64,000 bases of DNA from Candidatus Multivoradales bacterium (GTDB taxonomy: Bacteria > Acidobacteriota > Thermoanaerobaculia > Multivoradales > J023): the NCBI GenBank assembly GCA_965248925.1, contig CBDFLE010000006.1:1088001-1152000 (forward strand). The letters are read 5' to 3'. A model generated the notes under the pieces. That model saw nothing but the letters and a program-made list of their open reading frames with translations. It made no database searches and was not told where the DNA came from. Of the stretch, positions 19,687 through 35,791 are shown in pieces. Each line of letters opens with the position of its first letter. Position 1 is the first letter of the stretch. The translations under genes and the position numbers were made by a program.

Positions 19687-20415
19687 TTAGGGTTGGTTAC
19701 GCTCGGATTCGAAGCAGAATTGCTGCTGCTCCTGATGACGTTCCCGCAGCACCTTGAAAACGCAGCGGCCATCGCCCTTTTGGAAACTTTCTTCCCGCAC
19801 CACTCGCCGACCGAGCAACCGCGACAGGGTCTCGACCGTGAGACTGCACAATGCCGGCCGACGGCTGGCCACTCTGAGGTATGGGCAATTGCGTTCCACC
19901 AAGCGCAAAGCACCGTCGTTGCCGCGCTCGACGCTGGTGTAAGGATCGTCGCTTTGGTAGAGGTTGCGCAGGCGCTCGAGTTTCTGCTCGTGGTCGAGCC
20001 CTTCAAGCATCGGCCGCCAACCCTCTTCGCGCCGAGCGACTAGCTCTGCCATCGTCCGACGCATGCCCTCGAGCCCATCACGCTCGGCGATCACATCGAT
20101 CAACTCGGTCGACAAGTCGTGATAGCTCTTGGGAAATAGATTCTCACCGGCCATGGTTAGCCGGTAAAACACCGTCGGGCGACCGACACCGCGGTCAAAA
20201 GGTCGCTCGGCGCGCTGATCTACCCAACCCGCCGAACGCAGGTGAACGACCTGCTGCCGAACCGCTTCATAGGACAGCTCGACTGCCGCCGCGAGCTCGG
20301 AAATACTCGCTTTTTGACGCTGTTTGATGGTCTCCAACAGCTGACGCCGGAGAGAGGTTAGCTGCGCGGTCGAAGTGGCTTCACTTGCCTGGTGCTGAAT
20401 CATCTTGCTGACCAT
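19687..20415 (-). CDS. wHTH transcriptional regulator, SufR/ArsR-like with Cys ligands
   Basis: N-terminal HTH with GVGRPTVFYRLT...FPKSY. C-terminal ERNCPY...LC...GDGRC. Confidence 0.82.
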   Translation of the reverse strand: MVSKMIQHQASEATSTAQLTSLRRQLLETIKQRQKASISELAAAVELSYEAVRQQVVHLRSAGWVDQRAERPFDRGVGRPTVFYRLTMAGENLFPKSYHDLSTELIDVIAERDGLEGMRRTMAELVARREEGWRPMLEGLDHEQKLERLRNLYQSDDPYTSVERGNDGALRLVERNCPYLRVASRRPALCSLTVETLSRLLGRRVVREESFQKGDGRCVFKVLRERHQEQQQFCFESERNQP

Positions 20416-20570
20416 TATCCCATCTTTTCCCGGTAAAATACCCACGGCTAGACAAACTACCTACCTAACCCGTGCCGGGTGAGATACGGCAGCGGCAGGC
20501 ATTCACCGACAGATGTCGAGCTACGCCGCCCGCCACAAGACCAAACCGCGACCTTCGAGACGAGCTGCCG

Positions 20571-22190
20571 CTAACCACTGGCTGTGTCGGCGGCGCGAAA
20601 TAGCTGGCGCAAGCGGCGGATAACAGCATCCTCACTTCGCAGGTCTGCCACCGACACCGCTTGATGAAACATTGACGCCATCTGCCGCGGTTGGGGCCGA
20701 CATTCCACCGCCCGGCGATAACCCTCCAGAGCTCTCTCGCCAGCGCCCAAGACCAGCCAAGCTTCACCCTCGGTGGCCCACCGCCACAGGCCCTCGGGCG
20801 CCGCCGCGCAATGCTCGAGAGCCCGCTGGGCGTGTTCCTCGGCGGCTGGCGGCTGGCGCAGGAAGGCCAGCTGCAAGAAGGCGACGTTGATGGCGTGGTA
20901 ATAGGCTTGCTCTCGGTCCTTGGCGGCCTCGGCCGCGGCCAGAGCCTGGCTATACAACTGTAACGCCCGCGCCCCGTCGTCCTGGCGCCGCTCTTTCAGC
21001 CAGCGACGCTTGAGGCGGCCGGCCAGAGCTCCCATGGGATCGGTGCCGCTGGCACTCTTGAGCACCGCGATCGCATCGTCGCTGCGGCCATCGGACTCGA
21101 GGGCCAAAGCCAAGGTTACGCGAGTGGCATCGTCGAGTTCGTCGCGATGCGGCCACAGACTGTCGATCGCGTCGCGGAAACGGCGTCCTTCCACCGCCAA
21201 CCGAGCGCTGTTCCAAGGGCCCGCCGGGGCAGCTTCGCCGATCAGTTGTTTCTTGACCAGTTCGACGCTGAGCTGTTTCGCCGAACGCGGATTGACAATA
21301 CTCAAATGGTCCCCTGGAACTACCGCCTGGAAATCCTCAGGAAACGAATCGAGCACCGATTCGGCCGCGACGAATTCGTCTTCGTCACCGGCGACCGCCA
21401 AGAACTCGAACGGCGGGTTCTTGCCGATGAGCTCCCGCCAACGCTGCCGCAGATCGGTGATGAACGGACTGCCCTGCGCCATGTCGCGAATCTGGCGCTT
21501 GTAGAAGCTCATTAGCGAGGCCTTGGCCAAACCACCGCTAGGGGTTCCGAACAGAATCAGATGGCTGATCCGCGCTCGCAGCTCGGGTAGGTCGAGCAGC
21601 GCCCGCTGGGTCACCAAGCCACCCATCGAGTGGGCAATGACCGCCAAGCTGCGGTATTTGGCAAAAGGCGAATGGTCGGTGATAGTGCCGAAGAAGCTGC
21701 CCAACCGAGAGATTGGCGGCGACGCCGTCCACAAGCCGGAGAAATCGAGCCACAGGTTGGTCGAATAACCGATGCTGTAGACATCCCACGATTGGAGCAG
21801 TGGGTCGCCGAGCAGAATATTGGGAAACTCACCCCAGGTCTTCGCTGAATTCTGCCCGAATCCATGAACGAAGATGATCGCCGCTTCCTGGCCAAGATCG
21901 CGGAAAGTTGTGTAACTCGGCAAGTCGCTCTCGGCATCGGCTGCCGGCGGCAAATCACCCATCAGCCCCTCGAGTTCGTCAGCATATTCCAACAACGCGC
22001 GGGACAGGGCGCGGGGGAATAGCGCTGAAGTGCGGGCCAGTCGCCGAGCCGGCTCGGTGGCAATACCCTTGGGAAGCAACTTAAACGGCAGGGTCGAGGC
22101 TCGCAATCCTAGTCGGGTCACGGATTCGAAGAGGCTCGCCACCTTGTCACCGACCGCGTGCCCTCCGGCCTCCCCGGCAATACGTTTCAT
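20571..22190 (-). CDS. Alpha/beta hydrolase (PGAP1/DUF676-like) fused to a TPR-S / DUF4071-like helical domain
   Basis: IFVHGF, AHSMGG nucleophile elbow, GTPSGG, GDEDEFV, PGDH. C-terminal GALAGRLKRRW...YYHAINVAFL...WRWATEGEA. Confidence 0.75.
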   Translation of the reverse strand: MKRIAGEAGGHAVGDKVASLFESVTRLGLRASTLPFKLLPKGIATEPARRLARTSALFPRALSRALLEYADELEGLMGDLPPAADAESDLPSYTTFRDLGQEAAIIFVHGFGQNSAKTWGEFPNILLGDPLLQSWDVYSIGYSTNLWLDFSGLWTASPPISRLGSFFGTITDHSPFAKYRSLAVIAHSMGGLVTQRALLDLPELRARISHLILFGTPSGGLAKASLMSFYKRQIRDMAQGSPFITDLRQRWRELIGKNPPFEFLAVAGDEDEFVAAESVLDSFPEDFQAVVPGDHLSIVNPRSAKQLSVELVKKQLIGEAAPAGPWNSARLAVEGRRFRDAIDSLWPHRDELDDATRVTLALALESDGRSDDAIAVLKSASGTDPMGALAGRLKRRWLKERRQDDGARALQLYSQALAAAEAAKDREQAYYHAINVAFLQLAFLRQPPAAEEHAQRALEHCAAAPEGLWRWATEGEAWLVLGAGERALEGYRRAVECRPQPRQMASMFHQAVSVADLRSEDAVIRRLRQLFRAADTASG

Positions 22191-22285: not shown

Positions 22286-23956
22286 CTAGATCAAAAAAAC
22301 ATCCAGCATCGGTGCCGGGCTGCCGTTAATCTCCGCCAGTCCTTGGTGGACAATCGAGCGCAGCAGCACTTGCCGCTGCACCACGCTGCCGTCAGGCGCC
22401 AGCTCTTCGACCCACTGCACCGTGCTGCGCAGCCGCTCGGCACCGCGCAACAGCTGCCCGTCGCCAGTGTGCAGGTCGATCCGGTCGACCCCAGGATCAG
22501 TCTGCGGGAAACTCAAGCGTAACTGGGTCAGACCCGTAGGATCGATCGCCGCCAAACCAGCGGCGGTCAAATCAACCCGAAGAGCGTAGAACTCATCGCC
22601 AAGGCTACCGACGAAGCAACCAGCATTCTCGGCATCGGCGGGGGCGGTGGCATCTGCCGGCTCGACCACGGCAGCGCCGAAAGTCCCCCGCTTAACATCC
22701 AGCCGGGGCACTCCCAAATCGCCCGAAAGGAAGGGATTGCTGCCACTAGCCGCCGCCCGTAGCAAATATAGACTGGCGCCGGTAATCACCACATCGTCCG
22801 GCAGCCCTGAGGTGTCGAAAGATACCAGCCCGGCGTAAATCGCGCTGCCGTCGTCACCAACCCGGATCGCCTCCGTGCCACTGCCACTGCCATCGCTCCA
22901 GCCATCGTTGGCACCACCTTGAGAAAAAAAGCTTGCCGCCGGCCCGCCGCGAAAGTGGTCGAAGAAATAACTCTGAGTCTGCTGCGCGATCTTGTATTGA
23001 TAACCATCGAAATCAAGGTGGATCGGATCGGCCGAGATACCTGCCACCTCTCGAAAATTCTGCCGCAGGGTCGGCCGCTGCGGGTTGCCACCGGGGAATG
23101 GATGGTGCAGAGGTGCGGCGATTCCGGGCCGCGGCAGCTCGCCGGGAGCGGCCACCCCATCGCCGTAGTAATAGTGCATCAGGCCTACCGAATTATCGTA
23201 TTCGAGCCCCGCGCGGTCCAAGGTCCACCCCAGGCGCCGACTCTCGATGCCGACCATCATCGAGTTGAGTTCCTGATCGGAGATCAGATCGCCGTCTGGA
23301 TCGCGGGACAGATCATCCCGCTTAGGGCAAGCGTAGATCCAACACCAGAGGAAGTTGACGTTGAAATTCGGATACTCGTAGCTCGACAGCAAGACCGTCG
23401 GCTGATTTGCATGGCCGGCAATGGAGTCGATGATCGTCGTGGTGTCTTGGCGAATGGTGGCGAACAGAGCCGCTTCAGAACCCGCCTGGTCGAGGTCCAT
23501 ATCCTTGTACCAACCGCCGTCCGAACGGCCGGCAAGAAGATCGTTGCCACCGATCGCCAAGACCACCGTATCGATCGCCGGTTGAGCATCGAGTTCGGCC
23601 AGCAGATTAGCGATCCAGGGATAGTTGGTTGTGTCGGCCCATTGCCGCGCCTCGCTGCCCGAAATGGCGTACTCCGACCCGCCGTAGCCTGCTCCCGGAT
23701 CCACATCCAGCGAACGCGCCAACATCAACTTGTCGGCGTGGCCGAAACGATCGAAGACATCGTTGTGCGAACCGTCATCCCACATGAACTGGGCCCAACT
23801 ATCGCCCGCCATCAACGCTCGTGCCCGCGGCGCCGGGCAGGAAGGGCCGCGTTGACTCTCCGCTTGCTCAGCCATTGCAGAATCGGCGGCAGCGCCGACC
23901 GCCAAGCTCACAGTCAACACCGCGAGCAGCAGCTTATCTAGCTGGATATTCGCCAT
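22286..23956 (-). CDS. Secreted SGNH/GDSL hydrolase with a C-terminal beta (DNRLRE-like) domain
   Basis: Signal peptide MANIQLDKLLLAVL...AMA. Blocks GDSW, GGND and DPIH. Confidence 0.75.
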   Translation of the reverse strand: MANIQLDKLLLAVLTVSLAVGAAADSAMAEQAESQRGPSCPAPRARALMAGDSWAQFMWDDGSHNDVFDRFGHADKLMLARSLDVDPGAGYGGSEYAISGSEARQWADTTNYPWIANLLAELDAQPAIDTVVLAIGGNDLLAGRSDGGWYKDMDLDQAGSEAALFATIRQDTTTIIDSIAGHANQPTVLLSSYEYPNFNVNFLWCWIYACPKRDDLSRDPDGDLISDQELNSMMVGIESRRLGWTLDRAGLEYDNSVGLMHYYYGDGVAAPGELPRPGIAAPLHHPFPGGNPQRPTLRQNFREVAGISADPIHLDFDGYQYKIAQQTQSYFFDHFRGGPAASFFSQGGANDGWSDGSGSGTEAIRVGDDGSAIYAGLVSFDTSGLPDDVVITGASLYLLRAAASGSNPFLSGDLGVPRLDVKRGTFGAAVVEPADATAPADAENAGCFVGSLGDEFYALRVDLTAAGLAAIDPTGLTQLRLSFPQTDPGVDRIDLHTGDGQLLRGAERLRSTVQWVEELAPDGSVVQRQVLLRSIVHQGLAEINGSPAPMLDVFLI

Positions 23957-24035
23957 CGCCGCAGGATAGCAGAGGCCGAGGATCCCACTCAGCCGGCGGC
24001 TTGGGCGCGCTACTATCGTCAGCACTGAGATCAAA

Positions 24036-25679
24036 GTGCCCAGCCCCAATCACCAACTTACGCCCGCGAGCCCACCACGGACCGCCGCCTTGCTCGAGGT
24101 CCGTGGTCTACGAGTGCGCTACCGAACCCCGACCGGCGAGGTCACGGCGGTCGCTGGCGTGGACTTCGACATCCACCCCGGCGAGGGAGTGGGTCTACTC
24201 GGCGAGTCGGGCTGCGGCAAGACTAGCTTGTCGCTTGCCGTGGCCGGGTTGCTGCCAGCAAGCGCCGTCACCAGCGGCGGAGTGCATTGGCGCGGCCGGC
24301 GGCTCGATACCCTGCCGGCCGCGGCACGGCGTCGATTCCGCGGCGCCGAGGTGGGCCTGGTCTTTCAGCACCCCGATCGATCGCTCGACCCGCTGCAGCG
24401 GGTCGGCGGCCAAATCGCTCAGATTCTGCGCGCCCACCATCGAGCCAGGGGTCGGCAAGCACAGCAGCAAGCCCGGCAAATGCTCGCCGAGGTCGGCTTC
24501 GCAGATCCGGCAGCCACCGCTCGGGCCTACCCGCATCAACTCAGCGGCGGCCAGCGTCAGCGGGTGGCGATCGCCCAAGCTCTGGTTTGCCGGCCGGCAT
24601 TGGTGATCGCCGATGAACCCACCGCGGGTCTCGATTCGGTATCGCGCGCTCACCTGCTGCGGCTACTGCTACGGCTGCGCCAGGAGCGTCGAACCGCCTT
24701 GCTGGTGATTAGCCACGATCCTCTCGTACTGGCGGCGACCAGCGATCGTTTGCTGGTCATGCAAGAGGGTCGGTTGATCGAACGGGGCGCCGCCAGCGAA
24801 GTTCTCCACCACCCCCGGCAACCCCAAACCCGGCGCCTGCTGAGCGGCCTGTCGGGACCCCGCTCTAGCGCCCGAGAACAGCGGTCCATCACCACCGAGC
24901 GCTCTCGGAGTCCCTTGCTCGAGGCACTCGCTTTGACCAAGATCCACCCATCCCGCGGCCGCTCGGAACGGCCCGCGGTCGACGCAGTCAACCTTCGTTT
25001 GGCCGCCGGCGACACTCTGGCGTTGGTCGGGCGAACCGGTAGCGGCAAAACCTCTCTAGCCCGCTGCCTGGCCTTGCTCGATCGGCCGAGCGCTGGTCAG
25101 ATCCTGCTCGATGGCGAGGAGTTCCACCGCCTCCAGCGGGCTGCCAGAGCACGGATCCATCACCAGGTACAGCTGGTGCCACAGCATCCGGCCAGTGCCC
25201 TCAATCCGCTCTGGCGAGCTGCCCAAGCGGTTGCAGAGCCACTGTTCATCCACCGCCGCGGCAACCACCAACAGCGTCATCACCAGGCCCTCGAATGGAT
25301 GGCCGAGGTCGGCTTGGGCGCCGAGCTGGCACAACGCCCGGTCGGCCGACTCAGCGGTGGCCAAAGGCAGCGCCTGGTATTGGCTCGGGCGCTGGCTGCC
25401 CGACCGCGCCTGCTGATCCTCGACGAAGCTCTCTCGGCCTTGGACCTACCACGACGCGCACAGCTAGCGCAGCTGCTCGACGAGCTACGCCGCAAACACC
25501 ATCTAGCACTGCTGTGGATCTCGCACGACCTGCACACCGTCAGCCGGCTGACCGAGCGCATCGCGGTACTCGACCAGGGTCGCATCGTCGAGCAGGGAAC
25601 CTGTCGAGAAGTGCTCTCGGCGCCCGCTCACCCGGCCACCCAAGCGCTGATCGATGCCCTGCTGGAGCCCCCGGGATGA
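24036..25679 (+). CDS. Oligopeptide/dipeptide ABC transporter ATP-binding protein (fused double ATPase)
   Basis: GESGCGKT and GRTGSGKT Walker A motifs, two LSGGQRQR signatures, DEPT/DEAL Walker B. Confidence 0.92.
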   Translation: MPSPNHQLTPASPPRTAALLEVRGLRVRYRTPTGEVTAVAGVDFDIHPGEGVGLLGESGCGKTSLSLAVAGLLPASAVTSGGVHWRGRRLDTLPAAARRRFRGAEVGLVFQHPDRSLDPLQRVGGQIAQILRAHHRARGRQAQQQARQMLAEVGFADPAATARAYPHQLSGGQRQRVAIAQALVCRPALVIADEPTAGLDSVSRAHLLRLLLRLRQERRTALLVISHDPLVLAATSDRLLVMQEGRLIERGAASEVLHHPRQPQTRRLLSGLSGPRSSAREQRSITTERSRSPLLEALALTKIHPSRGRSERPAVDAVNLRLAAGDTLALVGRTGSGKTSLARCLALLDRPSAGQILLDGEEFHRLQRAARARIHHQVQLVPQHPASALNPLWRAAQAVAEPLFIHRRGNHQQRHHQALEWMAEVGLGAELAQRPVGRLSGGQRQRLVLARALAARPRLLILDEALSALDLPRRAQLAQLLDELRRKHHLALLWISHDLHTVSRLTERIAVLDQGRIVEQGTCREVLSAPAHPATQALIDALLEPPG

Positions 25680-26644
25680 TCCTCCGGTTGGCTCGCCGGC
25701 TACTCGCCAGCGCCTTGCTGCTGCTGCTCATCTCGGCCCTGAGCTTCCTCCTTGCCGAGCTGGCGCCGGGCGACTTTCTCGCCGAGATGCGCTTCCACCC
25801 AGGAGTCTCCGCGGAGACCCTCGAACATCTGCGCCAACTCCACGGCATCGACCGGCCGCTCAGCGAGCGCTATGTGGGCTGGCTGATGGCGATCGGGCGG
25901 GGTGAACTTGGCCATTCCTTTGCCCACAATCTGCCGGTCGTCGAACTCCTCGCTCCACGGGCTCGCAATACTCTGATCTTGACCATCACCGCGACCTGCG
26001 GGCTGTGGTTGCTGGCACTGACCCTGGCCAGCGCCGCCGCTCGCCACCCGCGAGGCGCTGTCGATCGCTGGGCCACCGCTGGCTGCGCGCTGCTCCTGGC
26101 CCTACCCCGACCGCTGCTGGCACTCGCCGCCTTGCTGCTGGCGGCTCGGGTCAGTTGGTTGCCGAGTAGCGGCATGCGCTCGCTGCCGCTGGTCGAGACC
26201 GGCAACTGGCACCCGCTACTGGACGGTGCTCGCCACCTGCTTCTACCTGCCGCGACTCTGATCCTGGCCGGCTTGCCAACCCTTTACCGGCACCTGCGTG
26301 GGGCACTCAGCGAGGCGTTCGGCGAACCCCATGTGGCCGCCGCCCGAGGCCATGGCATCGGGCGGCGAAGGTTGTTCTGGCGCTATGTGCTACCGAGTGC
26401 CGCCGGCCGCCTGACGAGCCTGCTTGGACTTTCTATCGGCGGCTTGCTATCGGGCTCGCTGGTCGTCGAGGTGGTGCTTGGCTGGCCTGGCTTGGGGCCA
26501 TTGATGCTCGACGCAGTGCTGGCCCGCGACATCTACCTAGTGGTCGCCGGCACCCTCATGTCAGCCACTCTGCTGATTGCCGGCAACCTACTCGCCGACG
26601 GCCTGCTGCTGGTTATCGACCCTCGGCTGCGGGAGCACGAGTGA
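25676..26644 (+). CDS. Peptide ABC transporter permease (OppB/DppB-like)
   Basis: ATGA overlap with the upstream stop. LAPGD, GELGHSF, AARGHG EAA loop, VVEVVLGWPGLG. Confidence 0.9.
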   Translation: MILRLARRLLASALLLLLISALSFLLAELAPGDFLAEMRFHPGVSAETLEHLRQLHGIDRPLSERYVGWLMAIGRGELGHSFAHNLPVVELLAPRARNTLILTITATCGLWLLALTLASAAARHPRGAVDRWATAGCALLLALPRPLLALAALLLAARVSWLPSSGMRSLPLVETGNWHPLLDGARHLLLPAATLILAGLPTLYRHLRGALSEAFGEPHVAAARGHGIGRRRLFWRYVLPSAAGRLTSLLGLSIGGLLSGSLVVEVVLGWPGLGPLMLDAVLARDIYLVVAGTLMSATLLIAGNLLADGLLLVIDPRLREHE

Positions 26645-27480
26645 TGGCCAAGACTCGGCGTCTGGCGCTTGGCTTGCTGGTGTTGCATCTGTTGGTTCTC
26701 GGCGCCACCTGGACCGCCCCTCACTCGCCAGAAGCCCAGGATCGCCAGCATCCCTTGGCGCCACCCTCCTTGAACCACCCCTTGGGCACTGACGAGTTCG
26801 GCCGTGACCAGCTTTCCCGCCTGATCTGGGGCGGTCAGATTTCACTCTTCGCAGCCTTGCTCGCGGCCTTGCTCTCGCTGGTCTGCGGCCTGACCGTAGG
26901 GGCGTTGGCAGGCTTCTACGGCGGCCGGGTCGACGCCTTGCTAATGCGCCTGACCGAACTCTTCCTGTCCCTGCCGTGGCTCTATTTGCTGCTGGCGGTA
27001 CGGGCCTTTCTTCCCCTCGACTTGGCGCCGGCAACAGTGTTCGCCCTCTTGATTGGAGTGATCGGTCTGCTGGGATGGCCGCGCACTGCTCGGCTAGTCC
27101 GAGGGGTCACCGTGGGCCTGCGTCATCGACCTTATGTCGCAGCCGCGCGCGGTTTCGGCGCCGCGGACTTCTACTTGCTGCGCCATCATCTGCTACCGCT
27201 GGTGCGGCCGGTGCTGCTGACCCAGCTCACCGTCTTGGTGCCGCGCTATGTCGTGGCGGAGGTCAGCTTGTCTTTACTCGGCCTGGGAGTAGCTGAGCCA
27301 GCCCCGAGTTGGGGCGGCTTGCTGGCCATGCTGCGCCGCTACGAGGTTTCCCTCTGTTGGTGGATGTGGTTGCCAGCTGCCAGCTTGGCGGCAGTCGTTT
27401 GGGGCTATCACCGGCTGGCCGATGACTTTGAGCGACAAACCGCCGTTCTATCGGATCAGCAGATCACTAACGACGAGTAG
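26641..27480 (+). CDS. Peptide ABC transporter permease (OppC/DppC-like)
   Basis: HPLGTDEFGRDQLSRL, YVAAARGFGA, SLSLLGLG..PAPSWG. Overlaps the previous gene. Confidence 0.9.
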   Translation: MMAKTRRLALGLLVLHLLVLGATWTAPHSPEAQDRQHPLAPPSLNHPLGTDEFGRDQLSRLIWGGQISLFAALLAALLSLVCGLTVGALAGFYGGRVDALLMRLTELFLSLPWLYLLLAVRAFLPLDLAPATVFALLIGVIGLLGWPRTARLVRGVTVGLRHRPYVAAARGFGAADFYLLRHHLLPLVRPVLLTQLTVLVPRYVVAEVSLSLLGLGVAEPAPSWGGLLAMLRRYEVSLCWWMWLPAASLAAVVWGYHRLADDFERQTAVLSDQQITNDE

Positions 27481-27510
27481 ACTTGCTGAGCTATCATTCA
27501 CCAGAGGTCC

Positions 27511-27573
27511 ATCTCAAATGCTGCGATCTCAAACGCTGCGATCTCAAACACCGTGAAATCAAACACCGCGATC
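27511..27573 (+). repeat. Four degenerate 15-bp tandem units (ATCTCAAAYRCYGYG)
   Basis: ATCTCAAATGCTGCG / ATCTCAAACGCTGCG / ATCTCAAACACCGTG / AAATCAAACACCGCG. Confidence 0.8.
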
Positions 27574-27599
27574 CGGCACCCGACCCCGGCAACCCTCTG

Positions 27600-29456
27600 A
27601 TGCAATGGTCACCCAGCCAGCCGGCCGCCCCCGGTCTCGAGCCGCGCAACACCCTGCCGCTGTGCTGTTGGCTGCCGCTGTGCGGCTGGCTGCTGCTCTC
27701 CTGTTCTCTGTGGTTCAGCCCTCAACCGCTAGCGGCCGAACTCCCCCTTTCAGCCAGCGCGGCTGGCGTGCAAGGAGCAGACACCGCCGCCGAACTACTG
27801 CGAGTCGAGATTCCAAGCGGCCAACCCGGCGGCCTGCTACGGGCTGTGTTGCGGGCCGAACCCAAGACTTTCAATCCGGTGATCAGTGCCGACGGTCCTT
27901 CACTGGCCATCGCCGGCCTAACCATGGCCAACTTGATTCGGATTGACCGCCACAGCTTGCACACGGTGCCCGCATTGGCTCACCGCTGCACCCCTTCAGA
28001 GGATGGCCGGCGGCTGCGCCTGGACTTGCGTCGCGGGCTGCGCTTCTCGGACGGACACCCGTTCGACGCCGACGATGTAGTGTTCTCTTTCGCGGTCTAC
28101 ACCGATGCCCAGGTCAGCTCGCCGAGTCGCGACTTGCTGAAAGTCGCTGGGCGACCGATCACCGCCCACCGCCTCGGTCCCTATGCGGTGGAGATCGAAC
28201 TGGCTGCGCCCTATGCGGTCGGCGAACGCCTCTTTGACGGTATTGCCATCCTGCCCCGCCACAAGCTAGAGCGGGCCTACCGTAAGGGACGGTTGCGCCA
28301 GGCTTGGTCCTTGGGCACGCCAGCTGAAGAGATCGTCGGCATGGGCCCCTTTCGCCTGCGCCGCCACGTCGCCGGCCAATATCTGGAATTGGAGCGCAAC
28401 CCGCACTACTGGAAGGTGGATTCCGCAGGCCAGCGGCTGCCCTACCTGGAGCGGCTGATCTTTGCCTTCGTCCCTGACCAGAGTGCCGAAGCGATTCGCT
28501 TGCAGAGCGGCGAGGCTGACTTGGTGGAACGGCTCGCCGCCGACAATTTCGAGCGTCTCCGGCAGGCGCAGAGCAAGGGTGATTTCCGAGTCCAGGATCT
28601 CGGCGCGGGGCTGCAGATCGAGTTTCTGTTTTTCAATCTCAACCCGTTATCCGCCAGTGCTTCGGCAGCCCGCCGCCACCGTCAGCGCTGGTTTCGCTCC
28701 GCTGCTTTTCGCCGCGCGATCTCGGCCGCTATCGATCGGCAAGCGATCATCCGGCTGGTCTGGCGCGACCGCGCGCAGCCCCTGCGGTCGCCGGTTAGCC
28801 CCGGCAACCGCGCCTGGTATGACAGCCGCTTACCACCGAAGGCAAGATCGCTCGCCCGCGCCCGTAGCGAACTGCTCAGCGCCGGATTCCACTGGAACGA
28901 CCGCGGCGACCTGCTCGATTCGCAGCAGCATTTGGTCGAGTTATCCTTGATTACCAGCGCTTCCAACAGTCAACGACGAGGCGCGGCAACGTTGATTCAG
29001 GAAGACCTACGCCAGCTCGGCATCCGCCTGCGGGTGACCTCGCTCGAATTCCGCGCCCTGGTCGACCGGGTGACGGCAAGCTTTGACTATGACACTTGTC
29101 TGCTCGGCCTCGGCGGTACGGATACCGACCCAAATCCGATGATCGCCTTGCTGCATTCGCAGGGTGCCACTCACTTCTGGCAACTTGGCGGTGGCGGGAT
29201 CGAGCCCTGGCAAAAGATGATCGACCAGTTGCTCGAGGACCAGCTGATCAACCTCGATCCGCTAGCCCGCAAGCGCCAGTTCGACCAAGTGCAGCAGCTG
29301 GTCGTCGAGCACCAGCCGTTCGTTCCGCTATTGAGTCCCAACGTGTTGGTCGGCGCCCACCGCCGCCTCGGTGGCTTTCGCCCCGCCATCTTGGCACCGC
29401 ATACTCTGTGGAACGCCGACCAGCTCTACTGGCTCAGCCCACCGAGCAAACACTAA
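27600..29456 (+). CDS. Peptide ABC transporter substrate-binding protein (SBP family 5)
   Basis: EPKTFNPV, LRFSDGHPFDADDVVFS, GMGPF, ERNPHYW, FRRAISAAIDR. Start uncertain between 27483 and 27600. Confidence 0.9.
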   Translation: MQWSPSQPAAPGLEPRNTLPLCCWLPLCGWLLLSCSLWFSPQPLAAELPLSASAAGVQGADTAAELLRVEIPSGQPGGLLRAVLRAEPKTFNPVISADGPSLAIAGLTMANLIRIDRHSLHTVPALAHRCTPSEDGRRLRLDLRRGLRFSDGHPFDADDVVFSFAVYTDAQVSSPSRDLLKVAGRPITAHRLGPYAVEIELAAPYAVGERLFDGIAILPRHKLERAYRKGRLRQAWSLGTPAEEIVGMGPFRLRRHVAGQYLELERNPHYWKVDSAGQRLPYLERLIFAFVPDQSAEAIRLQSGEADLVERLAADNFERLRQAQSKGDFRVQDLGAGLQIEFLFFNLNPLSASASAARRHRQRWFRSAAFRRAISAAIDRQAIIRLVWRDRAQPLRSPVSPGNRAWYDSRLPPKARSLARARSELLSAGFHWNDRGDLLDSQQHLVELSLITSASNSQRRGAATLIQEDLRQLGIRLRVTSLEFRALVDRVTASFDYDTCLLGLGGTDTDPNPMIALLHSQGATHFWQLGGGGIEPWQKMIDQLLEDQLINLDPLARKRQFDQVQQLVVEHQPFVPLLSPNVLVGAHRRLGGFRPAILAPHTLWNADQLYWLSPPSKH

Positions 29457-29483
29457 ACCGAGCGAACGCCAAACCGAGCGACG

Positions 29484-30068
29484 ATGACCGCGAGATTGAG
29501 CCCACAGCCGAGCTGGGAAGACCCCAAGCTAGTCGCCGCTTGCCTGGCAGGCGACGAGCGCGCCTGGCGAGCGTTGGTCGACAAGTATAAGAACCTGCTC
29601 TTCGCCATCCTGCTCAAACGCGGCCACGATCGCGAGCAAGCTGCCGACATTTTCCAGACGGTCTGGCTCGATGCCTACAACGACTTGCCCAAGCTGCGCC
29701 AGGGTGGCGCCCTCAAAACCTGGCTGATCTCATTGGCCCACCACAAGAGCTACCATGCGACGCGTCACAAGCGGCGCTTGGAGAGCCGCGAGCAAGGAAC
29801 CGATGAAGAACTGGACGTGGCCGACCAAGGCCCCGACGCCGGCACCTTCATGATCGAGTTGGAACGGCACCAGCAAGTCCGGCAAGCCGTCGTCGGGCTG
29901 CCAGACCGATGTCGAGAACTGATCCGCATGCTGTTCTTCCGCTCTCCGGCCCTGCCCTACCGGCAAGTCGCCGAGCGCTTGGGGCTGGCGACTGGCTCGA
30001 TCGGCTTCATTCGCGGTCGCTGCCTGAAGAGGCTGCAACGAAGTCTCGAGCAAAGCGGGCTCGGGTGA
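29484..30068 (+). CDS. ECF sigma-70 factor
   Basis: Sigma2 (CLAGDERAWRALVDKY...DIFQTVW) and sigma4 (LPDRCRELIRMLF...YRQVAERLGLATGSIGFIRGRCLKRL). Confidence 0.92.
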   Translation: MTARLSPQPSWEDPKLVAACLAGDERAWRALVDKYKNLLFAILLKRGHDREQAADIFQTVWLDAYNDLPKLRQGGALKTWLISLAHHKSYHATRHKRRLESREQGTDEELDVADQGPDAGTFMIELERHQQVRQAVVGLPDRCRELIRMLFFRSPALPYRQVAERLGLATGSIGFIRGRCLKRLQRSLEQSGLG

Positions 30069-32929
30069 TTCGCCCAGCCACTGCAGAAGAACTCGCCCGA
30101 CGCCTCGCCAAGCTCGACGAGGCTGGACGCCAGCGGCTCGTGGCGCGCCATCCCGAGCTTAGGTGCCGGGCTCGAGTGCGGGAGTTGTGCAAGGCCAGTG
30201 CCGCCAATGCCGGCGCCGACCTGGAGCAGATGGACCGCCTGGCCGGCGCCGCGCAGTGGCTGGCGGGAGTTTTGAAAGAACCTCTGCCGCAGGCGCTGGC
30301 GTTGCGCGCCCGCGCCAACACCGCCCATTTCCAGGGCGAACTAGAGCAAGCCCAAGATCAGTATGGCGAAGCCCTGGCACTGCTCGAAGACGCCGGTGAG
30401 CAGCAGGAAGCCGCCATCACACGCTCCAGCGCCTTGCTCAATCTGGCCTATTTAGGCGACTACGACGGCGCCCGGCGGTGGTACGAGGCAGCGCGATGCG
30501 CGTTTGAAGAGCTTGGCGATCGGCAGCGGCTGGCAGTGCTCGAACACAACCTGGCGAACGTCCTCTACCGCCGCGACAGCTGGAGCGAGGCGCTCGATCT
30601 CTACCGTCACGCCCAGAGCGAGCTGGAACAGTTAGATCGACCTCTCGAGGCCGCGATCTGCTTGCGCAATGTGGCCGTCTGCCTGATCAGCCTGCACCGT
30701 TTCGACCAGGCTCTAGAGGCTTATCGCCAAACCCGCGCCTACGCCAACGCTCACCAACTCGATCGCATCTGCCTGCAAGCCGACTACAACATCGCCTACC
30801 TGCACTACCTGCGCGGCGAGTACATGCAGGCTTTACGTTTGTTCCAAACCGTCCGTCGCGATTGCGCCGACCAAGGAGATCTCTACCACCAGGCGTTGTG
30901 CGATCTGGATCTTGCCGAGATGTACCTCGAACTGAACCTGGTCGACGAGGCCGCCGAACTCGCCACCAACGCCCGGCAGAGTTTCACTGTCCAGCAGCTC
31001 ACCTACGAAGCAGCCAAAGCCGAGACCTTCCTGGCGTTGGCGCGCAGTCGGCTGGGTGACACTCAGACGGCGCTCGACGGGTTGGTCAGCGCCCGGCTCG
31101 CGTTCAGCGCCGAAGCCAACTTGCTGTGGCCGGCGCTGATCGATCTCTACCGCGCGGTGGTGCATTACCGACGCGGTGAACTCAGCGCCGCGCGGCCCTT
31201 GGCGAAGCAAGCCCGTAGCGCCTTCGCCGATCCGGCCACGGCGCCCAAAGCAGCCCTCTCTGCTCTGGTGCTGGCGGAGATCGAGTTGGCCAGCGGCCAG
31301 GCGGCCGCGGCCCGCCAAAGCACCGAGGACGCTCTGCGCCAACTCGCCGGCCACGACCTGCCGGTACTCGAGCATCAGGCCTACCGAACTCTCGGGGAGA
31401 TCGAAGAGATCGCCGCCGAATACCCTCGCGCCATCGCCGCCTACCAGCGCTCTCTGGAGCTTCTCGAGCGACTCCAGAGTCAGCTCCACGGCGAGCACCT
31501 AAAGATCCCCTTTCTTAGCGATAAGCACGCCGTCTACGGCAATCTAGTGCGCTTGATCGCCCACGACCGCAAACGCGTCGGCCGCGGGCGGCAAGTGTTG
31601 AAGATCATCGAGCAGGCCAAGTCACGGGCCTTGACCGATCTCCTGTGGTTTCGCAGTCACGACTTACCCTCGACCTCAGCGGCGGGCGATAAGCTAGTTG
31701 TCAGTCTCGCCAATCGGCGGGCCGAGCTGAGCACGATCTACCACCACCTCGACCGCCTGCAGCTGGCCAGCGGCGCTCCCGCTTTGGACCAACTACGCCA
31801 GCTGTGCGATCAGGCGCGGCGCTGCGAGAGTGCCTTGGTCGACCAGCAACGCCAACTCCTGGCCATCGACCAAGACCTCGGCTCCTTGCAGCCAGGGGCG
31901 CCGATCGACCTCGAAGCGATCGCTGGAGCCCTCGGCGACGATCAGCTGCTAGTCGAGTACTTCATCGCTCGCGACACTCTGCTGGCCGCGGTGGTCGATC
32001 GGCGGAGTATCGACATCGTCGAATTGGCCAGCGCCGAAAAAGTGCGCGGTGTTCACCGTCTGCTGCAGCTCCAACTCTCCAAATGGCCCCTAGGAGAAGC
32101 CCGTCTGCGTCCCAACATCCCGTTGATCGCCGCCGCCACCAGCGCTCATCTGGGCGAGCTTTACCAGGCCCTGATCACCCCCCTCGCCCACCTGCTGGAG
32201 GCCGGGCAGCAGCTGATCGTGGCACCGCACGGTTTCCTCCACTACGTGCCGTTTCACGCCCTCTACGATGGCCACGACCACTTGATCGACCATCACTCGA
32301 TCTCCTACACACCGAGTGCTTCCGTTTTTCAGTTGGCGGCCCGCAAATCAGCCGCGGCCAACCAGCGGTCGCTGGTGCTCGGGATCGCTGACCAACAAAC
32401 GCCGCACATTCTCGACGAGGCTCGCGCGGTTGCTTCCAGTCTGCCTCATTCGACCCTGTTGCTGGGTAGCGAGGCGAGCAGCTCGGCGCTGCGCCAGTTG
32501 GGTCCCGGAAGCCGCTTCGTGCACATCGCCACCCACGGCCTCTACCGCCGGGACAATCCAATGTTCTCCGCCATTCAACTGGGCGATGGGCGACTCAGTT
32601 TGTTCGATCTCTACGACCTCCAGCTAGACGCTGAGTTGGTGGCCTTGAGCGGCTGCGGTACCGGTCTGAACACCGTCCTCAGCGGCGAAGAGCTGGTCGG
32701 TCTGACCCGCGGCCTGCTCTACGCTGGAGCCCAATCGGCGCTGGTCACTCTGTGGGATGTCCACGACGCTTCCACGGCTGATTTCATGCGCCGCTTCTAC
32801 CGCCACTTGGGCAGCGGCAACGAACGTGCCGCCGCCCTGCGGCAGGCGATGCTGGAAACTCGCGAGCACCAGCAGCACCCCTACTATTGGGCGCCGTTCG
32901 CCCTGGTGGGAAAGCCCGATGGCCGCTGA
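30065..32929 (+). CDS. TPR-CHAT (caspase-like, HetF-family) protease
   Basis: GTGA overlap with the sigma stop. Long TPR array, then a CHAT domain with PHGFLHYVPFHAL, HIATHG (catalytic His), LSGC (catalytic Cys), TLWDV and HPYYWAPF. Confidence 0.92.
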   Translation: MIRPATAEELARRLAKLDEAGRQRLVARHPELRCRARVRELCKASAANAGADLEQMDRLAGAAQWLAGVLKEPLPQALALRARANTAHFQGELEQAQDQYGEALALLEDAGEQQEAAITRSSALLNLAYLGDYDGARRWYEAARCAFEELGDRQRLAVLEHNLANVLYRRDSWSEALDLYRHAQSELEQLDRPLEAAICLRNVAVCLISLHRFDQALEAYRQTRAYANAHQLDRICLQADYNIAYLHYLRGEYMQALRLFQTVRRDCADQGDLYHQALCDLDLAEMYLELNLVDEAAELATNARQSFTVQQLTYEAAKAETFLALARSRLGDTQTALDGLVSARLAFSAEANLLWPALIDLYRAVVHYRRGELSAARPLAKQARSAFADPATAPKAALSALVLAEIELASGQAAAARQSTEDALRQLAGHDLPVLEHQAYRTLGEIEEIAAEYPRAIAAYQRSLELLERLQSQLHGEHLKIPFLSDKHAVYGNLVRLIAHDRKRVGRGRQVLKIIEQAKSRALTDLLWFRSHDLPSTSAAGDKLVVSLANRRAELSTIYHHLDRLQLASGAPALDQLRQLCDQARRCESALVDQQRQLLAIDQDLGSLQPGAPIDLEAIAGALGDDQLLVEYFIARDTLLAAVVDRRSIDIVELASAEKVRGVHRLLQLQLSKWPLGEARLRPNIPLIAAATSAHLGELYQALITPLAHLLEAGQQLIVAPHGFLHYVPFHALYDGHDHLIDHHSISYTPSASVFQLAARKSAAANQRSLVLGIADQQTPHILDEARAVASSLPHSTLLLGSEASSSALRQLGPGSRFVHIATHGLYRRDNPMFSAIQLGDGRLSLFDLYDLQLDAELVALSGCGTGLNTVLSGEELVGLTRGLLYAGAQSALVTLWDVHDASTADFMRRFYRHLGSGNERAAALRQAMLETREHQQHPYYWAPFALVGKPDGR

Positions 32930-33020
32930 ATGGACAAGAAAAGTTCTTAACGACTATATTTTTCGCCGGCCAGCATCACCCCCATACTAGGTAGAGGGAC
33001 TTTTCATAGGAGCGTTCTCG

Positions 33021-33644
33021 ATGTCCAAGCCTGACTTGGCAGAATGGTGTGACTACGTGCGAGGGGTGGGAGATCCGCAACGCAAGGAGCGTTTGAGTGA
33101 ACTGCTCGCCAGCGGGCCGGCTGCCGCCCGCGATACCATCGCGGCGTTCTCTCAGGTGTTGGCCACGGCCCGCGCCGACCAGCTGCAGGAGCCTCCGGCC
33201 TATGCTCTACGCTGCGCCTACTCGCTCTCAAGCACCCGCCCAAGCGGTCGTCGAGAGAGTGGCTTTACTGACCGCGCTTTCCAAGTCGTCTTCGACAGCC
33301 TGCGCGATGCTCTGCCGGCCGGTTCGCGACGGCTGCACAGCGCTCATCGCCAACTGGTTATCGAGTCGGCTGAGATTCAGCTCGACTTGAAAATCGAGCG
33401 CGAAACCGATCCCGGGCAAACCGTGGTGGTCGGCCAAGTCATCGACCGGCAAGACGGTGATCCGCGCCCCCTGCGGCAAGTACCAGTGCTGTTGTTCTCG
33501 GCAACACGGGTCGTCGGACGAGCCCTCTCAGGGCCCTTCGGGGAGTTTCAGGCGGATGGACTGCGAGAGGATCCGGTCAGCCTCTGCCTGTTGATCAGCG
33601 ACGATGAGCGACTACGAGTACCTCTCGACGAGGCTTTTGAATAG
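33021..33644 (+). CDS. Hypothetical protein, putative anti-sigma factor / CHAT substrate
   Basis: AGGAG RBS. Helical N-terminus resembling a degenerate zinc anti-sigma domain (WCDYVRG...LSELLASG), central FDS..RR motif, C-terminal beta sandwich (LDLKIE...VVGQV...GPFGEF). Confidence 0.65.
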   Translation: MSKPDLAEWCDYVRGVGDPQRKERLSELLASGPAAARDTIAAFSQVLATARADQLQEPPAYALRCAYSLSSTRPSGRRESGFTDRAFQVVFDSLRDALPAGSRRLHSAHRQLVIESAEIQLDLKIERETDPGQTVVVGQVIDRQDGDPRPLRQVPVLLFSATRVVGRALSGPFGEFQADGLREDPVSLCLLISDDERLRVPLDEAFE

Positions 33645-33662
33645 CGAGATGGAGGAACTGGG

Positions 33663-35123
33663 GTGTTTGAGCAATCGATCCATATTGAATCTCTCCGCGG
33701 TCTGAAGATCGCCCTGCTGCTGGCGGCGCTGGCGGGCACTGCCACCCTGGTAGAACCGACGCTCGCGGAGCCCGGCCAAGGCAACCACTTCGACCGCCGC
33801 AACCCGCAGGTCAACCAAGCCTTGCTACGTGCCGACGCCAGCCAGCATCAGGCGATCGCCGCGCAATACGGCCTCAGCATCGTTGGCCGGCACGGCGATC
33901 TAGCCCTGGTCGAAGGACCCGGCTCGATGACCGCCGAACAGCTGACCGAGCTGCTGACCGGCGACCCGCGCCTCACCGCCATCGAGCCGGCCCTGCAAGC
34001 GCGCTTGCCGGCAAGTGCTGACGGCGGGAGCGAACGCGAAGACAGCGGCAGTCTGGCGCCCGATTTGCTGCGCCTTGGCAGCGCCGCGACTCCATGCACC
34101 AGTCAACTGGTCAACACTCCGCTGTGGAGCGGCTACGCCGACCAAAGCGCCGGCGACAGGATCCATCTCGACGAGGCCCAACAAGCTGCCGCGGATTGCG
34201 GAGCCATCACCGTGGCGTTACTCGACACCGGGGTCGATCCCGACCACCCGGTCTTGCAAGGGGCATTGCTACCCGGCTTCGATTTTCTCAGCGACACTCC
34301 GGGGACGGCTTCTGAGTTTCTCGATCAATCCGTGATGCCCATTGTCGAACACACGTTGATTACCGTCGCCGGCATGTCCGCCGCTGCGGTGGCAGCGGGC
34401 AACGCCCAGCCCCTGGAACTCGGAACCACGATGGCGGTCTTGGTGGCCCCGAGCAGCGCCGCCCAGCTGAGTAGCCAAGACCTGCCAGCATTCTTCGGCC
34501 ATGGCACGATGGTCGCCGGCATTGTTCGGCTGACCGCTCCCGGCGCCCGGATTCTGCCGCTACGAGTGTTCAACAGCGAGGGTCAAGGGCACGTCTTCGA
34601 CATCGTCCGGGCGATCTACTACGCCGTTGCACAAGGCGCCGAAGTGATCAGCATGAGCTTCAGCGTCGCGGAGTCCTCGGCCGAGCTGCGGCGAGCGGTG
34701 CAGTACGCCCGCGGCCAGGGGGTGACCTGCGTTGCCGCGGCGGGCAACCAAGGAGAGCGCGTGCTGGTCTATCCAGCCGCCCTTGCCGACGCTATCGGCG
34801 TCACCTCGACGACCCAGAACGACCAGCTCAGTGGATTCTCGAACTTCGGCGCCGCGCTGGTTGACCTCTCCGCCCCGGGCTCGGCGGTGATCTCCACCTA
34901 TCCCGGCGGCCTCTACGCCGCCGGCTGGGGCACCTCATTCAGCACTCCATTCGTCGCCGGCACTTTGGCCCTGCTGCACAACCTGGTCGACCCAGGCCCC
35001 ACCGCTCGGCAGAGCCGGATCAACGCCCTGCTATCTGGAGCTGAACGCATACCTGGATTGGCGGGCGATATCGGCCGCGGTCGGCTCGATGCCCAAGCGG
35101 CGGTACTTGCCGCCAGTCCATAA
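33663..35123 (+). CDS. Secreted subtilisin-like serine protease (S8)
   Basis: GGAGG RBS and a Sec signal peptide. Catalytic motifs VALLDTG, GHGTMVAG, AAAGN, GTSFS. Confidence 0.92.
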   Translation: MFEQSIHIESLRGLKIALLLAALAGTATLVEPTLAEPGQGNHFDRRNPQVNQALLRADASQHQAIAAQYGLSIVGRHGDLALVEGPGSMTAEQLTELLTGDPRLTAIEPALQARLPASADGGSEREDSGSLAPDLLRLGSAATPCTSQLVNTPLWSGYADQSAGDRIHLDEAQQAAADCGAITVALLDTGVDPDHPVLQGALLPGFDFLSDTPGTASEFLDQSVMPIVEHTLITVAGMSAAAVAAGNAQPLELGTTMAVLVAPSSAAQLSSQDLPAFFGHGTMVAGIVRLTAPGARILPLRVFNSEGQGHVFDIVRAIYYAVAQGAEVISMSFSVAESSAELRRAVQYARGQGVTCVAAAGNQGERVLVYPAALADAIGVTSTTQNDQLSGFSNFGAALVDLSAPGSAVISTYPGGLYAAGWGTSFSTPFVAGTLALLHNLVDPGPTARQSRINALLSGAERIPGLAGDIGRGRLDAQAAVLAASP

Positions 35124-35181
35124 GGCATCACCTCATGAGCGACCGTCCCCAGCCGAAGTAATGCTGGAGACGGTCGTTCGC

Positions 35182-35562
35182 TTACTCGCCGATCACTCCG
35201 CGCATCCACTCGGTCAGCTCGTGCTTGTCGCAGCGACTGGTTGCTACTCGCAAGGTGATCTCTTCAAGATCCTCGGGGGCCGGTAGTGGGTCAACGCCGT
35301 TGACTTCCAGAAACACTAGCGCAGCCAAGGCCGCGGCGCGCTTGTTGCCATCGTGAAAAGCGTGGTTCTTGGCAATGTGGAACAAGTAGGCAGCCGCCAT
35401 GGCGGCCACTCCATCGTGCAAGCATTGGCCACCGAACTGCTGCTGCGGCATCAATACGGCAGACTCCAACAGTCCCGGATCCCGCAGCCCGGCCAGCCCT
35501 CCCTCACGGGCGATTGTGTTCTCTTGGATGAGAAGGACGTCCACGACACTGAGGAAGCGCAT
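35182..35562 (-). CDS. doc: Fic/Doc-family toxin
   Basis: GLRDPGLLESA and the HAFHDGNKR Doc motif. ATG lies 1 nt after the antitoxin stop. Confidence 0.88.
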   Translation of the reverse strand: MRFLSVVDVLLIQENTIAREGGLAGLRDPGLLESAVLMPQQQFGGQCLHDGVAAMAAAYLFHIAKNHAFHDGNKRAAALAALVFLEVNGVDPLPAPEDLEEITLRVATSRCDKHELTEWMRGVIGE

Positions 35563-35563
35563 T

Positions 35564-35791
35564 TCACTCAGCCAACCGCTGCAACATCTTGGAATACCGA
35601 GGCCGAAGCTTAGCCAGAGATTCCTCGACTCTCTCGCGTCCAATTCCTACTTCGACCGGGGTCATGATCAACGAGTTGCCACTGATCGAAATCTGTAGAG
35701 GACTGTTCGCTTGGATACCTATCGCTTCCATCAGCGGCTTGTCGATCACCAATGCGTGGCTGTTGCCGTGCTTCTTGAGTGTCTTGACCAT
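35564..35791 (-). CDS. AbrB/MazE-like antitoxin
   Basis: MVKTLKKHGNSHALVIDK AbrB motif, C-terminal YSKMLQRLAE, AAGGAGG RBS. Directly upstream of doc. Confidence 0.88.
   Translation of the reverse strand: MVKTLKKHGNSHALVIDKPLMEAIGIQANSPLQISISGNSLIMTPVEVGIGRERVEESLAKLRPRYSKMLQRLAE

Follow-up and report, generated by a model that had tools for sequence, protein, structure and literature searches.

We analysed a 64,000-nucleotide (nt) stretch of the genome of a Candidatus Multivoradales bacterium (contig CBDFLE010000006.1, positions 1,088,001 to 1,152,000), referred to here as the window. Eight genes on its forward strand, spanning window positions 24036-35123, encode an ATP-binding cassette (ABC) importer with its solute-binding protein (SBP), a sigma factor of the extracytoplasmic function (ECF) class, a caspase-like protease with tetratricopeptide repeats and a CHAT domain (TPR-CHAT), a protein of 207 amino acids (aa) that we call p207, and a subtilase of family S8. 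This cluster is conserved in relatives and probably forms a proteolytic switch, so far uncharacterised, by which the cell would monitor what it imports from its surroundings. Gene content and coordinates were confirmed with Pfam and by reading the sequence directly; the features are, in order:

24036-25679, forward (+) strand: fused double ABC ATPase of the Opp/Dpp/Nik (PepT) type (Pfam ABC_tran in two stretches, plus oligo_HPY)
25676-26644, + strand: ABC permease, OppB/NikB-like (Pfam BPD_transp_1 and BPD_transp_1_N; five hydrophobic segments)
26641-27480, + strand: ABC permease, OppC/NikC-like (Pfam BPD_transp_1)
27483-29456, + strand: family-5 SBP, predicted exported (Pfam SBP_bac_5, E 1.1e-70)
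29484-30068, + strand: ECF (group IV) sigma factor, RpoE/AlgU-like, 194 aa (Pfam Sigma70_r2 and r4; NCBIfam TIGR02937)
30065-32929, + strand: TPR-CHAT caspase-like cysteine protease, 954 aa, predicted cytoplasmic (Pfam CHAT, E 8.5e-65, plus TPR_12, TPR_1, TPR_2 and TPR_MalT)
32955-32986, + strand: bipartite promoter-like motif ahead of p207 and S8 (box 1 at 32955-32963, degenerate box 2 at 32979-32986)
33021-33644, + strand: p207, putative soluble anti-sigma-like protein, 207 aa (no Pfam or NCBIfam match; assigned on family-level features)
33663-35123, + strand: subtilase S8, predicted exported (Pfam Peptidase_S8, E 1e-39; N-terminal hydrophobic segment)

The initial annotation had described eight same-strand genes, several of them coupled, and every overlap and gap that it named was found on the sequence. 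The ATPase stop overlaps the start of the first permease (ATGA at 25676-25679), whose own stop overlaps the start of the second (GTGA at 26641-26644); 27 nt separate the SBP and sigma genes, and the sigma stop overlaps the CHAT start (GTGA at 30065-30068). The sole sizeable gap, of 91 nt, lies between CHAT and p207, and p207 is followed by S8 after 18 nt. Such clustering is far beyond chance: dozens of genomes share this set of genes. Rfam gave no match at E 1 or better across 23800-35400, and a terminator scan was uninformative (3 sites against 6.8 expected). A look for transcript data turned up four sequencing runs, all DNA-type contigs of a single study.

By Pfam, the sigma factor consists only of regions 2 and 4. 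It scores 80.9 bits with the ECF superfamily model TIGR02937, above the cut-off of 42.9, and all NCBIfam equivalogs are under theirs; among solved structures it is closest to 8z6g_B and 6in7_B (E ~1e-16) and to 1or7, the sigma-E of E. coli. For the protease, the nearest solved chains are the CHAT domains of Csx29 (E ~1e-7), with similarity confined to the CHAT domain, and the Csx29 NCBIfam model NF041237 reaches 52.6 bits against a cut-off of 300, again over the CHAT domain only. The catalytic residues of both proteases had been called intact from the window sequence, together with a signal segment on S8, and all three calls hold and extend to relatives: the CHAT His and Cys are each present in 52 of 53 proteins, the single miss being a gap, and the S8 triad, intact in the window, is found at Asp in 53, His in 56 and Ser in 56 of 56. 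S8 is weakly similar to the peptide-maturation proteases QhpE and PatA/G, all under the NCBIfam cut-offs.

Topology was read from Kyte-Doolittle profiles, with a 19-residue window for the proteins of the window itself and a 15-residue window at a value of at least 1.8 across loci. In the window, residues 13-34 of S8 form an N-terminal hydrophobic stretch, and the sigma factor, CHAT and p207 lack hydrophobic segments. N-terminal segments recur in 54 of 56 S8 proteins and 28 of 34 SBPs in related loci, as opposed to 1 of 68 p207, 1 of 49 CHAT and 0 of 54 sigma proteins. These profiles predict that S8 and the SBP are exported and that the other three proteins are cytoplasmic, an arrangement that fits the switch proposed below. 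The only hydrophobic segment of the SBP frame sits at residues 58-78 counted from the TTG start at 27483; this start is therefore probably too early, and the true one probably lies downstream. We also considered S8 as a site-1 protease of p207, which was ruled out with S8 predicted to be exported and p207 free of a membrane span.

The window copy of p207 matches no Pfam or NCBIfam family. A word-based search returned only two relatives, and a full HMMER search with a three-sequence profile was used instead. With a cut-off of E 0.001 it revealed a family of 2363 representative clusters, 170 of which reached 1e-30. Almost all are 190-240 aa long, and the family is unannotated: for 10 clusters that we looked up, all names given were 'hypothetical protein'. 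The consensus of 70 members begins W.DFVRG and contains HLxxGCxxC, and Pfam recognises zf-HC2 in 4 of the 70 and CarboxypepD_reg in 8. Of the H-x3-C-x2-C zinc motif of class I anti-sigmas, CxxC is seen at the level of the family, in 63 of 68 p207 proteins from genomic loci, and is lost in the window copy, where P33 and A36 replace the two Cys. When the family profile was run against the PDB, anti-sigmas came first and second, RslA (3hug_B, E 0.028) and RsiW (5wuq_C, E 0.038); these matches are weak and concordant, and lie over the H/CxxC stretch. Furthermore, D92, R103, G138 and F176 are invariant in all 68 proteins and G101 is kept in 62, and a D92...G101-x-R103...R110-Q111 block sits between the N-terminal helices and a beta-rich C-terminal domain. 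Altogether, p207 appears anti-sigma-like, most plausibly a soluble protein of the ZAS/zf-HC2 type with a CarboxypepD_reg-like C-terminal domain. The term 'anti-sigma-like' in the initial annotation therefore stands for the family, while the window copy itself departs from it in having no Cys pair.

To place the cluster among relatives, we searched a phylum sample of 401 genomes, which gave a p207 match at E 1e-5 or better in 45, and 301 genomes of the class of genome G147, with a match at E 1e-20 or better in 52; 17 genomes of the same order as the window had none. Loci of up to 20 kb around each p207 gene were then taken from 42 of the 52 positive genomes, from 17 distant matches in the phylum sample, from three named metagenome-assembled genomes (MAGs) and from one metagenome. 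They were annotated with profiles made from the window proteins and from paralogues in the window's own genome. Related-locus searches alone had yielded three loci in genome contigs and five in metagenome contigs, of which only L057 had flanks.

The clade that includes the window holds 51 p207 genes in 48 loci, and CHAT stands directly before 39 of these genes. S8 follows p207 in 36 of the 39 CHAT-p207 loci, an SBP gene lies within 12 kb in 32 and permease genes as well in 28, and the sigma gene is present in 37, separated from p207 only by CHAT. An ABC component occurs in 25 of 28 genera or units. Seven CHAT-p207 loci have no ABC gene: in L085 and L098 less than 2.5 kb of upstream sequence is available, and three others are the second module of a tandem pair, of which L061 has an SBP gene in its first module and L088 and L089 run out of sequence before the corresponding position. 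Linkage to the importer persists through changes of gene order (L034, L060/L096, L066, L068, L075): L034 reads p207-S8-ABC-sigma-CHAT, L066 has its ABC genes after S8, L060 and L096 have divergent permeases and the SBP gene after S8, and L075 has S8 before the ABC genes. In L094, no S8 lies within the available stretch. The initial annotation had set out that the proposal would fall if the ABC genes were not conserved next to the module; across relatives their proximity is conserved, rearranged loci included, and the proposal is not refuted on this point.

The 17 distant loci (L037-L053) show a different order, sigma-p207-CHAT(-S8). The sigma gene is directly upstream of p207 in 16 of them and CHAT directly downstream in 14; S8 follows CHAT in 8, and only 1 has an SBP gene nearby. 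The sigma and p207 genes are thus conserved together as in a sigma/anti-sigma pair, side by side in the distant set and with only CHAT between them in the clade of the window. A quick maximum-likelihood search with 68 p207 proteins gave a tree (rooted at the midpoint just to draw it, and with several long branches) in which the two sets part, SH-aLRT support being 98% on either side. The window groups there with L001, L002, L003 and L057 at 100% support, and the named members of this group are Thermoanaerobaculia or Acidobacteriota MAGs.

By Pfam, the importer has all the parts of an Opp/Dpp/Nik (PepT-family) system: a family-5 SBP, two BPD_transp_1 permeases, and two ATPase domains with an oligo_HPY tail. 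The ATPase, fused in the window, is encoded by two separate genes in most relatives, where its orthologues also head the module. Its NCBIfam matches are DppD/F, OppD/F and NikD/E, with whole-protein scores that sum the two domains, and it exceeds the cut-offs for NikE (350.7 bits against 332.55) and NikD (339.6 against 318.7) only as such a sum. All matches of the SBP and permeases are far under their equivalog cut-offs; the best model for the SBP is that of the nickel-binding NikA (110.7 bits against 393), followed by Opp4A (94.3 against 650). Of the 'Opp importer' in the initial annotation, the ABC type is upheld by the Pfam domains, while 'Opp' is a loose label and a peptide a presumed rather than proven ligand.

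The importer also appears to belong to the module. Over ~540 residues, the window SBP is 36-51% identical to the SBPs of relatives' modules, and the only other SBP5 protein in the window genome scores 125 bits against it. In a search of the same 301 genomes, SBP scores fell into two tiers, and we took the upper one (at least 419 bits), which covers 50 genomes. Of the 301, 47 have both p207 and an SBP of this clade, 5 have p207 only, 3 have the SBP only and 246 have neither; two of the five p207-only genomes carry a lower-scoring SBP linked to the module (G545 and G435, the latter with an internal stop). No P value is attached to this co-occurrence because related genomes are not independent samples. 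On sequence relationship and distribution, the module SBPs form a single clade dedicated to the module.

Ahead of p207 and S8 we found a bipartite promoter-like motif. Box 1 has the consensus cCCTATATTTTTc, and box 2, taCCCTTATg, begins 23-24 nt after the start of box 1, which leaves a hexamer-to-hexamer spacer of 17 nt; a stretch rich in A/T is found 11-18 nt ahead of box 1. The search pattern dictated positions 0-6 of box 1 only; box 2 and the flanks emerged unselected. We then trained a weight matrix on 20 relatives, leaving out the window, and it detected 52 sites of at least 15 bits in 1.18 Mb of loci, as against 1 in the reversed control; most of the 52 lie just upstream of p207. The site in the window reaches 17.1 bits, its box 2 being weak and degenerate. 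L001, the closest relative, has directly after S8 a gene for a signal-bearing S9 prolyl oligopeptidase (12259-14879) with its own copy of the motif at 29.7 bits, which suggests a small regulon of secreted peptidases. Sites elsewhere precede genes for a DUF5666 protein, an inositol monophosphatase and a sigma-54 activator, and vary between loci. We infer that the motif is likely the target promoter of the module sigma factor. Two other assignments were tried. A housekeeping promoter was ruled out, as the motif is rare outside the heads of p207 genes. Box 1 as the -10 element of a sigma-70 promoter was rejected across the loci, where no conserved -35 stands at the right distance and the spacing to box 2 is fixed at 17 nt; for the window alone it is a possible reading.

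How might these parts work together? The reading that we favour, held tentatively and at somewhat less than an even chance of being right, is an import-coupled and fully cytoplasmic proteolytic switch made of ECF sigma, anti-sigma and TPR-CHAT and laid out in two transcription units. The first unit, ABC importer-sigma-TPR-CHAT, would be the sensing machinery, and the second would comprise p207 and S8 behind the motif. We infer the binding, ligand and cleavage steps as follows. The dedicated SBP and ABC importer would take in an extracellular ligand, most likely short peptides, and the ligand or the state of transport would activate the cytoplasmic TPR-CHAT. CHAT would then cut soluble p207, with a candidate site after the invariant Arg103 in the inter-domain motif, by analogy with the CHAT protease HetF of Anabaena, which cleaves PatU3 after Arg117 (PMC9457339; this and the other papers cited below were available in part, and what is said of them holds for those parts). 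The freed sigma factor would transcribe p207 and S8, plus further secreted peptidases in relatives; exported S8 would yield more peptides in a feed-forward loop, and newly made p207 would reset the switch. The more specific proposition, that TPR-CHAT is the receptor-protease for a molecule imported by its own module and frees the sigma factor by cutting a ZAS-type soluble anti-sigma after the invariant Arg, is possible but doubtful. The role of the switch is likely to be the sensing of proteinaceous substrate and the induction of extracellular proteolysis rather than cell-cell signalling.

A number of observations weigh against the favoured switch. The window p207 has neither zinc ligands, with P33 and A36 in their place, nor a Pfam match. 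Nothing links the motif to the module sigma, and an alternative reading exists, as a sigma-70 scan of the window reads TGGACA-18-TATATT at 32931-32960, in which box 1 could serve as the -10. The matrix scan of the loci found no site upstream of the ABC operon or the sigma gene, and no shared motif was seen by eye before the ABC operon in 11 upstream regions, whose starts are uncertain. The reversed-genome control reaches 17.3 bits, above the 17.1 of the window site. A scan of the window's own genome was also non-discriminating (9 sites of at least 12 bits against 5 in the reversed control), so the regulon in that genome is not definable. For the importer, the best SBP model is that of a nickel-binding protein, far under its cut-off, and the NikD and NikE cut-offs were passed only by summing two domains. 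As to conservation, the loci were picked via p207, 10 of the 52 positive genomes (including G462) lie outside the locus set, and the genomes compared are related and do not count as independent samples. L063 and L003 are true ABC-negatives, flanked on either side by at least ~9 kb; L002 and L064 have p207-S8 pairs with no sigma or CHAT gene nearby, and L057 has p207 alone.

The strongest competitor, in our judgement an unlikely one, is that the sigma factor, p207 and CHAT sense some unrelated cytoplasmic cue, and that the importer and S8 are a nutritional output with no feedback on CHAT. A protease together with a peptide importer makes a self-sufficient feeding unit, S8 shares its conserved motif with p207, the secreted S9 oligopeptidase of L001 has the motif as well, and second S8 genes follow in L081, L088 and L089. 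However, the ABC genes are not behind the motif, but share a unit with sigma and CHAT, to which they are joined by the 27-nt gap and the stop/start overlap. Furthermore, the SBP clade is nearly co-extensive with p207 across genomes, and the distant sigma-p207-CHAT-S8 modules keep S8 (8 of 17) without ABC genes, having a nearby SBP in only 1 of 17. The importer is therefore something that one clade has added on its sensing side.

The synteny, topology and co-occurrence that speak for the import-coupled switch would serve equally for strict quorum sensing, in which S8 matures a dedicated signal peptide, the ABC importer brings it back and the TPRs bind it. Intracellular TPR receptors of the RRNPP type (Rap, Rgg, NprR, PlcR and PrgX, with Opp) are known to act with a family-5 SBP/ABC peptide importer, the same combination as in the module, and the sub-cut-off similarity of S8 to QhpE and PatA/G points the same way. 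In sequence, however, the relationship to RRNPP does not go beyond generic TPRs. Pfam finds TPR and CHAT in the protease and no helix-turn-helix or phosphatase output of the RRNPP kind, and the output proposed here is cleavage of an anti-sigma. A precursor peptide gene would not fit into the gaps of 91 and 18 nt, and none was seen conserved in the loci, where no systematic survey of small open reading frames was made. Moreover, the additional motif-bearing genes vary by locus and include a general oligopeptidase. We therefore consider strict quorum sensing improbable, and the 'quorum-sensing-like' character proposed in the initial annotation is weakened: sensing of substrate or peptides fits better, since no precursor gene was seen and the oligopeptidase of L001 has the motif, which suggests scavenging of proteins or peptides.

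A slightly weaker contender makes the transporter a co-sensor, with the transport state of the ABC ATPase read through contact with TPR-CHAT or p207, much as MalK holds MalT. The ABC genes appear from their gap and overlap to be co-transcribed with sigma and CHAT, and the TPR region gives a weak, sub-cut-off TPR_MalT match (E 4e-5). No direct evidence for such contact was found in the analysis, and four loci (L059, L061, L077 and L082) keep an SBP gene with no permease within 12 kb; L059, L077 and L082 have no ATPase-permease run in the 3.7-4.8 kb upstream of the SBP gene either (for L061, ~2 kb upstream is available). A contact of this kind is accordingly rated quite improbable. Finally, a conflict or defence module, with CHAT as a death or immunity effector as in Craspase or SAVED-CHAT, is very improbable: Csx29 is the nearest solved relative of the CHAT domain, type III-E and III-B loci encode sigma factors alongside CHAT proteases (PMC10028731; 10.1101/2023.06.23.546230), and a Fic/DOC and a TPR-S gene lie nearby, but PADLOC recognised no system and gave hits solely to general models for TPR proteins and subtilases, a Pfam scan of genes at 13984-42664 brought up no Cas, CARF or SAVED family, the flanking genes are not conserved with the module, and the partners that are conserved are an importer and a secreted protease.

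One close characterised parallel to the import-coupled switch is the type III-E Craspase, in which Csx29 cleaves Csx30, the inhibitor of CASP-sigma, and so relieves inhibition of the sigma factor (PMC10028731); CHAT proteases acting on sigma inhibitors have also been discussed for type III-B (10.1101/2023.06.23.546230). Both Craspase and the module encode together a cytoplasmic TPR-CHAT, an ECF-type sigma and a small soluble inhibitor, known for Craspase and putative here (PMC10028731). They differ in that no Cas7-11 or CRISPR context was seen (Pfam gave no Cas family for the module and ten scanned neighbours, and PADLOC no system match), and in that the proposed activator is an imported ligand here and a target RNA in Craspase. 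In addition, p207 matched no Csx30 chain in the PDB search and has a ZAS-like N-terminus, the protease reaches only 52.6 of the 300 bits required by the Csx29 model, and the unit in the window also includes an ABC importer and a secreted S8.

DdvA of Myxococcus xanthus is a TPR-CHAT anti-sigma for which self-cleavage by CHAT has been proposed as the releasing step (PMC11506125). Like the module, the DdvA/DdvS pathway combines an ECF sigma, a zinc-type anti-sigma domain and a His/Cys TPR-CHAT. DdvA, as described in the available part of that paper, is a single transmembrane protein with a ZAS domain and a periplasmic TPR-CHAT, whereas p207 and CHAT are separate genes whose products in the window have no hydrophobic segment. 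A signal would have to be imported in the module; proteolysis in DdvA is itself a proposal (PMC11506125).

ECF54 sigma factors of Actinobacteria have conserved carboxypeptidase, subtilase and CHAT neighbours, and proteolytic control has been proposed for them in a 2022 review (PMC8999054). The module resembles this context in its S8, its CHAT and its p207 family with CarboxypepD_reg in 8 of 70 members, a likeness of neighbours and not a placement of the sigma factor in a clade. ECF54 is described as actinobacterial and without a recognised regulator or anti-sigma (PMC7826278, in the part available), and no ABC importer is described for it in the parts of these sources available; here, in contrast, the named relatives are Acidobacteriota and p207 looks like an anti-sigma.

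With HetF and PatU3, the module shares the idea of a CHAT protease that removes a small inhibitor, and R117 of PatU3 parallels the invariant R103 of p207. PatU3 sequesters the regulator HetZ (PMC9457339). HetZ had initially been cited as a sigma-type regulator, a description that does not agree with this source, which in its available part presents a regulator sequestered by PatU3, not a sigma-type factor, and gives no importer or subtilase context. Neighbourhoods of caspase, ECF sigma and DUF1822 genes have been noted as well (PMC8195603). Our literature search, with supplementary ECF group tables outside its scope and the papers available in part, found no paper on the composition of the module, on an ABC importer in such a module or on the p207 family. 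The initial claim that the system has no characterised counterpart thus survives as regards coupling to an importer, and must be qualified because CHAT, subtilase and carboxypeptidase genes around ECF54 sigmas had already been noted (PMC8999054, in the part available).

The genome of the window holds further CHAT genes: 31 CHAT matches and a single p207. Most of the 29 strong CHAT genes have an ECF sigma gene within 6 kb. Many TPR-CHAT genes lie 0.6-0.8 kb downstream of the sigma gene, with a gene of ~240-270 aa between them (X) that has a CxxC-type motif and one hydrophobic span; examples are G000:C6:461119-465352, C6:1218212-1221693, C5:1911690-1916146, C5:1474635-1477978 and C5:1771623-1776201. 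In 10 sigma-X-CHAT sets, with frames taken stop to stop and positions therefore rough, X has one hydrophobic span in 6 and the CHAT frame an N-terminal hydrophobic segment in 5, and of five X proteins scanned, two matched zf-HC2 weakly, narrowly missing the cut-off. These sets look like a split, membrane-bound version of the DdvA design (PMC11506125), expanded many-fold. The module in the window is the all-soluble version, and the one that carries an importer.

Release of ECF sigma factors by proteases is textbook biology. What seems unusual, and well conserved as judged from gene content, is the addition of an importer coupled to a cytoplasmic caspase-like sensor. CHAT control of sigma factors has so far been documented only beside CRISPR, and proposed for the DdvA fusion. 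If our reading is true, the CHAT-sigma logic would extend to ordinary environmental sensing, with a dedicated importer feeding a cytoplasmic caspase-like sensor. It would constitute a new, import-coupled route to an 'extracytoplasmic' sigma factor that needs neither CRISPR nor a membrane anti-sigma and is conserved in 25 or more genera or units, and it might account for some of the large TPR-CHAT expansions of these bacteria. A large unannotated family would gain a name and a testable role, with Arg103 as candidate cut site and a candidate target promoter. The module would also represent a compact and probably orthogonal switch from ligand to transcription that could be rebuilt in a laboratory host.

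Some loci depart from the standard module. In genus g235 (L061, L088 and L089), two sigma-CHAT-p207-S8 modules stand in tandem, the first of which carries the SBP gene (seen in L061). The second has a gene of ~2 kb between CHAT and p207, encoding a DUF5666 protein in L061, with its own copy of the motif. Partial modules comprise p207-S8 with no sigma or CHAT gene within 6-10 kb (L002 and L064), p207 alone (L057), and, among L078 and L087, ABC-sigma-p207 without CHAT and S8 and ABC-SBP-p207; they may be split modules, decay or assembly breaks.

Around the module in the window, genes on the reverse strand at 19687-22190 and 35182-35643 encode a TPR-S (TPR sensor) protein, an HVO_A0114-like protein and a small Fic/DOC protein, none of them conserved with the module. 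At 37470-40598, also on the reverse strand, is an open frame of 1042 aa with no Pfam match at E 1e-4 or better. The G+C content is 0.673 at 24001-26000, compared with ~0.616 in the preceding 4 kb; this shift and the missing p207 in the 17 genomes of the same order both fit horizontal acquisition of the module.

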